The position numbers and the translations under genes were made by a program. 16,712 nt of DNA from Escherichia coli. GTDB lineage: Bacteria; Pseudomonadota; Gammaproteobacteria; Enterobacterales; Enterobacteriaceae. The stretch lies in NCBI RefSeq assembly GCF_003334315.1, contig NZ_QOWR01000074.1; one strand, written 5' to 3'. Below the pieces are notes generated by a model. It searched no databases. It worked only from the letters and a program-made list of their open reading frames with translations, and was not told the origin of the DNA. Every line of letters starts with the position of its first letter. Position 1 is the first letter of the stretch. Below are positions 1-16,712 of the stretch, one piece after another.

Positions 1-149
1 GGTTGAGAAGCGGTGTAAGTGAACTGCAGTTGCCATGTTTTACGGCAGTGAGAGCAGAGATAGCGCTGATGTCCGGCGGTGCTTTTGCCGTTACGCACCA
101 CCCCGTCAGTAGCTGAACAGGAGGGACAGCTGATAGAAACAGAAGCCAC
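1..149 (-). CDS. insA: IS1 InsA (transposition regulator / N-terminal part of InsAB' transposase), 5' fragment running off the window
   Basis: Minus-strand translation from the GTG at 147-149 gives [49 protein letters not shown], the zinc-finger N-terminus of InsA. Confidence 0.88.
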
Positions 150-204
150 TGGAGCACCTCAAAAACACCATCATACACTAAATCAGTAAGTTGGCATCAT
201 CACC
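1..204 (-). mobile_element. IS1 insertion sequence, partial (left end: 23-bp IRL at 182-204 plus 5' part of insA); continues beyond window start
   Basis: Reverse complement of 1-204 matches the canonical IS1 left end GGTGATG(A/C)TGCCAACTTACTGATTTAGTGTATGATGGTG... as I recall it, continuing into insA. It is the exact reverse complement of 16509-16712 except one base at 197 in the IR. Confidence 0.93.
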
Positions 205-248
205 GACGCGATGATATTATTTACACTCCGCCAGGCGTTTAAATCGCC

Positions 249-665
249 TTAATATCCCTGCTCGAAATAGCTTTCGAGAATAATAACCGCAGAGGCAGAG
301 TCAACTTTGCCTTTGTTGAGCGCCCGATAGCCGCCCTGTTCAAACAGACCGGAACGGGCTTCCACAGTGCTAAGACGCTCGTCATGGAGCTTTACTTCAA
401 CACCGAAACGGCCATGAATACGGTTGGCAAATTTACGCGCTCTGGCAGTCAATGGTTGCTCGGTGCCGTCCATATTCAGCGGCAAACCGACGATGATTTC
501 GTCCGGCTGCCACTCTTTCAGTAAACGCTCGATAATGTTCCAGTCCGGCGTACCGTCCTGTGCTTTAATTGCAGGCAAAGGGCGAGCGGTGCCGGTAATG
601 CGTTGGCCGACCGCTACGCCAATGCTTTTGGTGCCGAAGTCGAAGGCGAGTAAGGTTCCACTCAT
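249..665 (-). CDS. ruvX: Putative pre-16S rRNA nuclease / Holliday junction resolvase-like protein RuvX (YqgF), 138 aa
   Basis: The ORF track frame contains [21 protein letters not shown]...[10 protein letters not shown]. The start is trimmed to the ATG at 663-665 (138 aa); the upstream in-frame extension is not coding. The start overlaps the yqgE stop (ATGA). Confidence 0.92.
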
Positions 666-1228
666 CAGGCGTGCCCTGCCACACCAGGCATGGTGAGAAT
701 ATCCACACCAATCAGTTTTGCCGCCTCGCGCCAGCGGTCGGCAATCGGCGTTTTGAACAGAATATTCAGATCTGCCGGGGCGGTTAGCCACGCGTTATCG
801 AGAATTTCTTGTTCCAGTTGACCTTTCTCCCAGGAGGCATAGCCCAGAGCCACCAATACGTCAGACGGTTGTTTATCGGTGCCGAGCGTTTCCAGCACAT
901 CGCGGGAAGTGGTCATCACCGTGTTGTCTGAAATGCGAATGCTGGAAGCAAAATTGGAGGGCGGAGTATGCAAAATAAACCCGCGATCTTCAGCCAGTGG
1001 GCCGCCGAGCATAACCGGTTTATCCAGACGGATTGATTCATCACGCGGCTCCGGCGTGATCTTCAGCTTTTCCAGAATCCCTTCAATTTTGAGATTTTCC
1101 AGCGGCTTGTTGACGATGATCCCCATTGCACCATTGGTATTATGTTCGCAAATGTAGACCACGGAACGACGGAAAATCGGATCCTGGAGAGCAGGCATGG
1201 CAATAAGAAAGTGATGCTGTAAATTCAT
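665..1228 (-). CDS. yqgE: UPF0301 family protein YqgE, 187 aa
   Basis: The ORF contains [29 protein letters not shown]...; the start is trimmed to the ATG at 1226-1228. The track's 24-codon N-terminal extension overlaps the gshB terminator. Confidence 0.9.
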
Positions 1229-1253
1229 TGTCAGAGGTTCTGTTTCCTGGTTC

Positions 1254-1297
1254 AAAAAAGCAACAGCGCCCAGTATGCGTGGAAAGAAGGGCGCTGT
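1254..1297 (-). terminator. Intrinsic terminator downstream of gshB
   Basis: Perfect 9-bp inverted repeat acagcgccc (1263-1271) / gggcgctgt (1289-1297) with a 17-nt loop. On the minus strand it is followed by a T-run (A-run 1254-1259 on plus). It lies about 40 bp after the gshB stop. Confidence 0.5.
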
Positions 1298-1336
1298 CAC
1301 TCAGAGTCTCAACGAGATCCTTCTCGCTAAGGTGGG

Positions 1337-14521: not shown

Positions 14522-14535
14522 TTAGCATTTCGGGT

Positions 14536-14566
14536 AAAAAGGTCGCTTCGGCGACCTTTTTTATTA
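14536..14566 (+). terminator. Intrinsic terminator of tktA
   Basis: Stem aggtcgc (14540-14546) / gcgacct (14551-14557) with loop ttcg, followed by ttttttatt. An A-run precedes it, so it could function bidirectionally. It lies 15 bp after the tktA stop. Confidence 0.8.
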
Positions 14567-14834
14567 CCTTGATATGTCCGTTTGCGGACAAGCAATAGAT
14601 AAGGCGTGTTGTAGATCACAAATATTTATATGCAATAAATATCAATTATGTAATATGCATCACGATATGCGTATTGACATTTGTTGTTATATCTATAACT
14701 CAATGTTATATAAGAAATTAATAATTCACTGTTTTCAAAACACCGGTTTCCCTGCTCAATTGCTTTCATTAAACCGCACGAGTATTTTATTTTTACCGCC
14801 GGACGGTACCCTAAAAATAAAATAAGGATAATTT

Positions 14835-15251
14835 ATGCGGCTTAGTGATTATTTTCCAGAATCATCAATCTCAGTTATACATTCAGCAAAAGATTGGCAG
14901 GAAGCTATCGATTTCTCGATGGTATCATTGCTGGATAAAAACTATATCAGCGAGAATTACATTCAGGCAATTAAAGATTCCACCATTAACAATGGCCCTT
15001 ATTATATTCTCGCACCAGGCGTGGCAATGCCTCATGCGCGACCGGAATGTGGGGCGCTTAAAACCGGGATGTCTTTGACATTACTTGAACAAGGTGTTTA
15101 TTTTCCGGGGAATGACGAACCAATTAAATTACTCATCGGACTCTCTGCTGCCGATGCCGATTCGCACATTGGCGCTATTCAGGCGTTAAGTGAATTACTG
15201 TGCGAAGAAGAAATACTCGAACAACTCTTAACAGCATCATCAGAAAAATAA
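14835..15251 (+). CDS. cmtB: Cryptic mannitol-specific PTS EIIA component, 138 codons here; likely C-terminally truncated by a nonsense codon
   Basis: Translation MRLSDYFPESSISVIHSAKDWQEAIDFSMVSLLDKNYISENYIQAIKDSTINNGPYYILAPGVAMPHARPE... is a PTS EIIA(Mtl/Fru)-type domain. The frame stays open for 8 more codons (LADIISRG) beyond the TAA at 15249-15251. Confidence 0.85.
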   Translation: MRLSDYFPESSISVIHSAKDWQEAIDFSMVSLLDKNYISENYIQAIKDSTINNGPYYILAPGVAMPHARPECGALKTGMSLTLLEQGVYFPGNDEPIKLLIGLSAADADSHIGAIQALSELLCEEEILEQLLTASSEK

Positions 15252-15305
15252 TTAGCGGACATTATCAGCCGCGGATAATTACTCTCTCCTCTACAGGATA
15301 ATATT

Positions 15306-16508
15306 ATGGAAAACAAGTCTGCTCGTGCAAAGGTCCAGGCTTTTGGGGGCTTTTTGACTGCAATGGTCATCCCCAATATTGGTGCTTTTATTGCCTGGGG
15401 TTTTATTACTGCGTTATTTATTCCCACCGGTTGGCTGCCTAACGAACATTTCGCCAAAATTGTCGGCCCGATGATTACCTATTTATTGCCCGTGATGATT
15501 GGTTCTACAGGTGGTCATCTGGTCGGCGGTAAACGCGGGGCGGTCATGGGCGGAATAGGTACTATTGGTGTGATCGTTGGCGCAGAGATCCCGATGTTCC
15601 TTGGCTCAATGATCATGGGGCCGCTCGGTGGGTTGGTCATAAAATATGTCGATAAGGCACTGGAAAAACGCATACCTGCCGGTTTTGAGATGGTTATCAA
15701 TAACTTCTCATTAGGTATCGCGGGGATGCTCCTTTGTCTGCTGGGTTTTGAAGTTATCGGCCCGGCGGTGTTAATTGCCAATACTTTCGTCAAAGAGTGT
15801 ATTGAGGCGCTGGTACATGCGGGTTATCTGCCATTGTTGTCAGTCATCAATGAACCGGCGAAAGTGCTTTTCCTCAATAATGCGATCGATCAGGGCGTCT
15901 ATTATCCGCTGGGAATGCAACAGGCTTCGGTTAACGGTAAATCCATCTTCTTTATGGTGGCCTCTAACCCAGGTCCGGGCCTGGGGCTGCTGCTGGCGTT
16001 TACCTTGTTTGGTAAAGGGATGAGTAAACGTTCTGCGCCCGGGGCGATGATTATTCACTTCCTCGGTGGGATCCACGAACTGTATTTCCCGTATGTGCTG
16101 ATGAAGCCGCTGACCATTATTGCCATGATTGCGGGCGGTATGTCTGGCACCTGGATGTTTAACTTACTGGACGGTGGTCTGGTGGCTGGCCCAAGTCCGG
16201 GGTCTATCTTTGCTTACCTGGCACTGACGCCGAAAGGCTCGTTCCTGGCGACAATTGCCGGTGTTACGGTAGGTACCCTGGTGTCCTTTGCTATTACTTC
16301 GCTGATACTGAAGATGGAAAAAACGGTGGAAACGGAGAACGAAGATGAGTTTGCTCAGTCAGCCAATGCGGTTAAGGCGATGAAACAAGAGGGTGCATTC
16401 TCGTTAAGCAGGGTTAAGCGTATCGCCTTTGTTTGCGATGCGGGGATGGGCTCCAGTGCGATGGGCGCGACCACCTTCCGTAAACGCCTGGAAAAAGCGG
16501 GGCTGGCA
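15306..16508 (+). pseudogene. cmtA: Cryptic mannitol-specific PTS EIICB component, truncated at codon 401 by IS1 insertion
   Basis: Translation MENKSARAKVQAFGGFLTAMVIPNIGAFIAWGF... is an EIIC membrane domain followed by the start of EIIB (FVCDAGMGSS). The frame runs into the IS1 IRL at 16509 and ends after 8 IS1-encoded codons (GDAANLLI) at 16535. Confidence 0.85.
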
Positions 16509-16712
16509 GGTGATGCTGCCAACTTACTGATTTAGTGTATGATGGTGTTTTTGAGGTGCTCCAGTGGCTTCTGTTTCTATCAGCTGTCCCTCCTGTTCAG
16601 CTACTGACGGGGTGGTGCGTAACGGCAAAAGCACCGCCGGACATCAGCGCTATCTCTGCTCTCACTGCCGTAAAACATGGCAACTGCAGTTCACTTACAC
16701 CGCTTCTCAACC
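16509..16712 (+). mobile_element. IS1 insertion sequence, partial (23-bp IRL at 16509-16531 plus 5' part of insA); continues beyond window end
   Basis: ggtgatgctgccaacttactgatttagtgtatgatggtg... matches the canonical IS1 left end as I recall it. It is the reverse complement of 1-204. Confidence 0.95.
16564..16712 (+). CDS. insA: IS1 InsA, 5' fragment running off the window
   Basis: The GTG at 16564 translates to [49 protein letters not shown]. Confidence 0.88.

Follow-up and report, generated by a model that had tools for sequence, protein, structure and literature searches.

Gene content and IS1 ends of the window

The window analysed here is the whole 16,712-nucleotide sequence of contig NZ_QOWR01000074.1 from the Escherichia coli assembly GCF_003334315.1, in which a block of chromosomal genes, including speAB, metK, galP and tktA, lies between the left ends of two copies of the insertion sequence IS1; it probably records two separate IS1 insertions at which a draft assembly came to a stop. 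A repeat search combined with base-by-base comparison identified window positions 1-204 as the reverse complement of 16509-16712, giving two 204-nt arms spaced 16,304 nt apart. The sole mismatch is at window position 197, where the left arm has T and the reverse-complemented right arm has G (99.5% identity), and complementarity ends sharply at 204/205 and 16508/16509. Apart from this one, the best inverted pairs that the window contains span 22-24 nt at 82-83% identity, so the terminal repeat is real and far beyond chance.

Each arm holds nucleotides 1-204 of an IS1 copy and ends at the window edge, the left copy (1..204) being minus-strand and the right (16509..16712) plus-strand. Both open with the 23-bp IS1 left inverted repeat (IRL), which is canonical and exact in the right arm (GGTGATGCTGCCAACTTACTGAT, 16509-16531); the left arm begins GGTGATGATGCC..., and its IRL (the reverse complement of 182-204) matches GGTGATGCTGCCAACTTACTGAT with C replaced by A at nt 8. 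The insA gene starts in the arms with GTG at IS1 nt 56, which is the transposase start annotated in RefSeq, and 49 InsA codons are translated; this 5' end of insA (codons 1-49) occupies 1-149 on the minus strand in the left copy and 16564-16712 in the right. Over nt 1-204 the right arm shows 100% identity to closed-genome copies annotated as "IS1-like element IS1A/IS1B family transposase", among them the one within cmtA of HS30-1 and the one adjoining yggN in VTB96935v. The left arm is 99.5% identical to annotated IS1A/IS1B, differing only at IS1 nt 8, and 100% identical to copies in HS30-1 and RM14721 that carry A at this position (the A8 variant). Since both IRLs adjoin the central block, the two copies are mutually inverted. 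The sequence-only reading from which this analysis started had described reverse-complementary arms with one mismatch, each carrying an IRL and the insA 5' end and facing inward; the comparison of the arms bore out the first description, and the IRL match, the insA start and the identity to annotated IS1 bore out the second. On each side 204 of the 768 nt of IS1 lie in the window, and the right inverted repeat (IRR), insB and the target duplications fall outside it.

The sequence between the arms (205-16508) aligns by BLAST to the E. coli chromosome as a single colinear match of 16,304 bp running from ruvX to cmtA, with 2 mismatches to VTB96935v, 2 to HS30-1 and 56 to K-12 MG1655. Judged from this alignment, the block is uninterrupted, free of internal rearrangement and at its native chromosomal position. 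An origin from K-12 or a laboratory strain was ruled out by the 56 mismatches to MG1655 against 2 to each of the other two genomes. With gene names transferred from RefSeq annotation, the minus strand encodes ruvX (249-665), yqgE (665-1228), gshB (1337-2287), rsmE (2300-3031), endA (3111-3818), yggI/sprT (3913-4410), galP (4487-5881) and metK (6305-7459); these are followed on the plus strand by yqgD (7515-7766), yqgG (7877-8020), yqgB (8114-8245), speA (8254-10230) and speB (10368-11288). Further along are loiP on the minus strand (11494-12252) and, on the plus strand, tkt (tktA; 12530-14521), cmtB (14835-15251) and the 5' part of cmtA (15306-16508). Rfam and tRNA scans of the window gave no match. 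Repeats of the repetitive extragenic palindrome (REP)/bacterial interspersed mosaic element (BIME) type lie between speB and loiP (11314-11492), where two 66-nt direct copies are 88% identical, with a related 23-mer at 6227-6249 in the galP-metK interval.

Insertion sites and IS1 alleles

The right IS1 is inserted after nt 1203 of the 1389 nt of cmtA (K-12 position 3,077,657), and window 16500..16508 (GGGCTGGCA) would be one copy of its predicted 9-bp target-site duplication. The insertion creates a chimeric open reading frame (ORF) on the plus strand (15306..16535; 409 aa) in which CmtA codons 1-401 are followed by 8 IS1 codons (GDAANLLI) and a stop. This ORF is specific to the right junction and is on record once, in Logan contig SRR1122540_253, which is common to 5 sequencing runs. 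Over its 5.1 kb that contig matches window 11380-16535 at 100% identity, stopping after the first 27 nt of IS1. The right junction is thus real, lineage-specific and independently seen, and because the Logan contig stops inside IS1, another short-read assembler also failed to cross the element. The same contig begins at window 11380, inside the speB-loiP repeat, which indicates that short-k assemblies break there too. A literature search on run SRR1122540 returned no paper. Further searches for the cmtA side of the insertion were negative: a generic 35-mer from the cmtA 3' end had no match in GTDB representative genomes, the predicted junction of IRR, target duplication (8 or 9 bp) and cmtA 3' end had none in JGI metagenomes, and the 51-aa C-terminal remnant of CmtA matched only unrelated, mostly frameshifted assemblies, none of them with the junction.

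The left IS1 lies in the spacer between yggR and ruvX, 44 bp past the ruvX stop codon and between positions 3,093,960 and 3,093,961 of K-12 MG1655. Here window 205..213 (GACGCGATG) would be the inner copy of a predicted 9-bp target-site duplication, the second copy of which would fall outside the window. The left inner junction was not found in GTDB representative genomes or JGI metagenomes, and two hypothetical chimeric ORFs on the yggR side, of 34 and 59 aa, are without record. On its outer side the site is directly adjoined by REP-like sequence (…CACGCCGCATCCGGCAATAA), and WP_001278270.1, a small hypothetical ORF, has been annotated as spanning it in at least one record (NZ_CP137739.1). Both insertions are in dispensable DNA, one in a spacer and the other in the 3' part of cmtA, a cryptic gene of the phosphotransferase system.

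The single difference between the arms, C at IS1 nt 8 in the right copy and A in the left (window 197), is also found elsewhere. A 60-nt query carrying A8 matched 363 E. coli records at ≥99% identity, and all 30 of the records listed were identical to it; A8 is a genuine circulating IS1 allele. It sits on an IS1A-type backbone in HS30-1 and on an IS1B-type backbone in RM14721, a distribution that points to recurrent mutation or to exchange between IS1 copies by recombination or gene conversion. Because the variant by which the arms differ existed beforehand, the two copies seem to have come from different donor copies and not from one duplicative event. The A8-variant IS1 of HS30-1 (NZ_CP029492.1 128632-131691) is flanked by ...ATCAATAAT and CACTTCCGG..., with no matching target duplication, and has the selB side on one flank and a truncated yiaL-like gene immediately on the other. 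The interval from yiaL to selB appears to have been lost through an IS1-associated deletion, in keeping with that strain's small genome of 4.42 Mb.

Closed genomes show that cmtA has been interrupted repeatedly by independent, plain IS1 insertions with 8-9-bp duplications and normal outer synteny. In HS30-1 and many of its relatives IS1 lies after about nt 390 of cmtA with an 8-bp duplication, in Q65 the duplication is 9 bp (AGAAAACGT), and in NH-21 it is AATTAACCG; in all three cases yggP comes next as usual. Across closed genomes, IS1 splits cmtA at no fewer than five (at least 5) different positions, counting a large HS30-1-like group, F11, Q65, NH-21 and others. The uniform orientation of IS1 among the cmtA insertions listed reflects a bias of the search, in which only same-strand pieces were joined.

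Two probable IS1 insertions at a collapsed repeat

The reading that we favour, with a probability of roughly three in four, is that the window is a draft contig broken at IS1 repeats and that the biology beneath it is two independent IS1 insertions. The host would be an IS1-rich, commensal or sequence type 10 (ST10)-like E. coli, and the window the whole of one contig in its short-read draft assembly. One IS1 would have inserted in the yggR-ruvX spacer and another in the 3' part of cmtA, in opposite orientations and with their left ends toward the block. With IS1 present in tens of near-identical copies, the assembler would be unable to pass either of them; both contig ends would run into one collapsed repeat in the same direction, the graph assembler would halt at the same node (nt 204), and the equal stops would appear as a terminal inverted repeat. 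Each IS1 would then be full-length and simply inserted, with an 8-9-bp target duplication of its own, the outer gene order would be reference-like, and the block would be single-copy and not inverted. Simple transposition makes a specific prediction for the sequences beyond the IRR end (…GTTGGAGTCATTACC): on the yggR side this should be followed by CATCGCGTC…, the reverse complement of GACGCGATG continuing into the spacer, and on the cmtA 3' side by GGGCTGGCAATTGAAG….

Both contig ends lie inside the same multi-copy element and at the same coordinate, IS1 nt 204. The closest relatives examined (HS30-1, RM14721 and others) carry at least 40 IRL matches per chromosome. For 40 IS1 copies on 4.5 Mb, about 5.4 neighbouring pairs are expected to lie no more than 16.3 kb apart, and about 1.35 of these to have both IRLs inward, so that a contig like this one is to be expected in such a genome. 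The equal end points, the IS1 load of the relatives and the Logan contig that ends in IS1 all support the proposal, already made in the sequence-only reading, of a draft contig broken at collapsed IS1 repeats. The outer neighbours it had anticipated also agree with the mapped sites, the left in the yggR-ruvX spacer and the right inside cmtA. Of the alternatives it had left standing, the simple twice-inserted locus is favoured here, and the mobile composite unit is not, as a block with these boundaries occurs in no other context.

Known elements offer close parallels. The two copies share their first 204 nt (apart from the nt-8 variant), the canonical IRL, the insA start at nt 56 and a non-essential target with IS1A/IS1B-type elements of E. 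coli; IS1 copies in relatives display 8- or 9-bp duplications, whereas only the inner flank of each copy lies in the window. The nearest counterpart to the pair is in closed genome F11 (NZ_CP184143.1), where an IS1 on the minus strand in yggM and an IS1 on the plus strand in cmtA likewise point their IRLs toward the speAB-metK-galP-tkt block, and where both genes are split in place within the reference gene order. The sites differ, being yggM and about nt 474 of cmtA in F11 and the yggR-ruvX spacer and nt 1203 of cmtA in the window, as do the lineages (99.1% identity), and F11 is closed with reference synteny whereas the window is a draft contig.

Several observations weigh against this reading. 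A search for either junction as a continuous match returned none of 5,426 complete E. coli genomes, the only hits being chance extensions or IS1 elsewhere in cmtA, so the set holds no closed genome with either junction. The left junction is without independent confirmation from another data set. IS1 sequence past nt 204 was recovered for neither copy, so that full length, duplications and outer synteny are predictions for this genome. Finally, the first polymorphism among IS1 copies of the sampled relatives is at nt 262, which leaves the stop at nt 204 unaccounted for. A stop placed just ahead of the first IS1 polymorphism was therefore not demonstrated; a genome-specific IS1 variant or overlap trimming may explain the stop.

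The feature is of an already known kind, in that IS1 insertions, draft contigs bounded by insertion sequences (IS), and IS-mediated rearrangements are all textbook phenomena. Its practical lesson is one of caution, as a contig may carry terminal inverted repeats simply because assembly halted in a multi-copy IS at each end.

Possible alternatives: inversion, misassembly or mobilisation

An alternative that we regard as unlikely, though worth weighing, is that the 16.3-kb block is inverted with respect to the rest of the chromosome, either by homologous recombination between the inverted IS1 copies once both had inserted or by a one-step duplicative inversion through intramolecular replicative transposition of one IS1. 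Such an inversion needs inverted IS1 copies at both ends as its substrate and would also be expected to leave them there as its product, and IS1 is among the elements for which IS-mediated inversions have been documented in E. coli (PMC4173774). The inversions of the long-term evolution experiment described there share with the window homologous IS copies in inverted orientation, but here the way the block is oriented within its surroundings lies beyond the window's reach. By our own reasoning, a flip carries the inner junctions along and leaves the outer ones in place on the chromosome, so that all four junction sequences, including the target duplications, are unchanged; the one-step duplicative route yields these four junctions as well. 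It follows that neither the window nor a list of short-read junctions can discriminate between the two states; only linkage across the whole 768-bp IS1 can. The check proposed in the sequence-only reading, in so far as it used target duplications and junctions, needs correction on this point, since the junctions are the same either way. Against an inversion, it is without positive evidence, and in the analogous inverted IS1 pair of closed F11 the block is not inverted. The one-step duplicative form in addition predicts identical copies, whereas IS1 nt 8 is not the same in the two arms, the variant being one that circulates in related genomes. Nothing in the sequence indicates that the block has moved or been rearranged. 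Were it inverted, duplicated or mobilised, it would be an added example of IS1 reshaping a housekeeping region, itself a known kind of event.

We consider it very unlikely that one or both IS1 arms are assembly artefacts, in which a repeat edge was wrongly joined to the block and no real insertion took place. The identical 204-nt length at both ends does show that the end points were set by the assembler and not by biology, and the unconfirmed left junction leaves room for such an error on that side. However, an independent assembly from 5 sequencing runs contains exactly the same right junction, and in both junctions the break coincides precisely with the end of IS1 (GGTGATG...). The left arm also has its own base at nt 8, a real IS1 allele in relatives, and so was not simply copied from the right end.

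Least credible of all is that the block and its two IS1 copies form an inverted-IS1 composite transposon moving speAB, metK, galP and tktA as a unit: two IS1 copies do bracket the block, and their outward IRR ends could in principle serve as transposon ends, but neither junction recurs in the complete genomes, no plasmid carries the block at these boundaries, the block is at its native locus and colinear with the reference, and both sites are in dispensable DNA, as would be the case for passive insertions. Composite IS1 transposons are exemplified by Tn9, with direct copies, and Tn1681, with inverted copies. The window resembles these in having two IS1 copies around a DNA segment and differs from them in that there is no evidence of movement, the cargo is native housekeeping DNA at its own locus, the outer ends and any target duplication of the unit as a whole fall outside the window, and the unit with these boundaries is absent from plasmids and other genomes. 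It would be most surprising if the two IS1 copies and the block made up a working composite transposon, or a segment able to invert reversibly, that duplicates, flips or transfers metK, tktA, speAB and galP in this lineage.

Carriage of the block on plasmids was considered and rejected, as the matches were mislabelled chromosomes or else NZ_CP137739.1, which holds a larger segment and has no IS1 at either site. This 187-kb IncFIA plasmid is the only true plasmid match, and its much longer chromosomal segment runs through both sites. The record comes from a pig mixed culture. At 49816-74097 it contains at least 24 kb of chromosomal DNA that spans hemW to epd with the reference gene order, and it represents either a mis-assembly or a plasmid of F-prime-like type. 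A further plasmid-labelled record of 32.8 kb, CP088472.1, aligns in three pieces, at 95%, to loiP-tkt-cmtBA (window 11303-16508). The annotation beneath this match includes a CTX-M beta-lactamase, and a resistance gene may thus be inserted in this chromosomal region.

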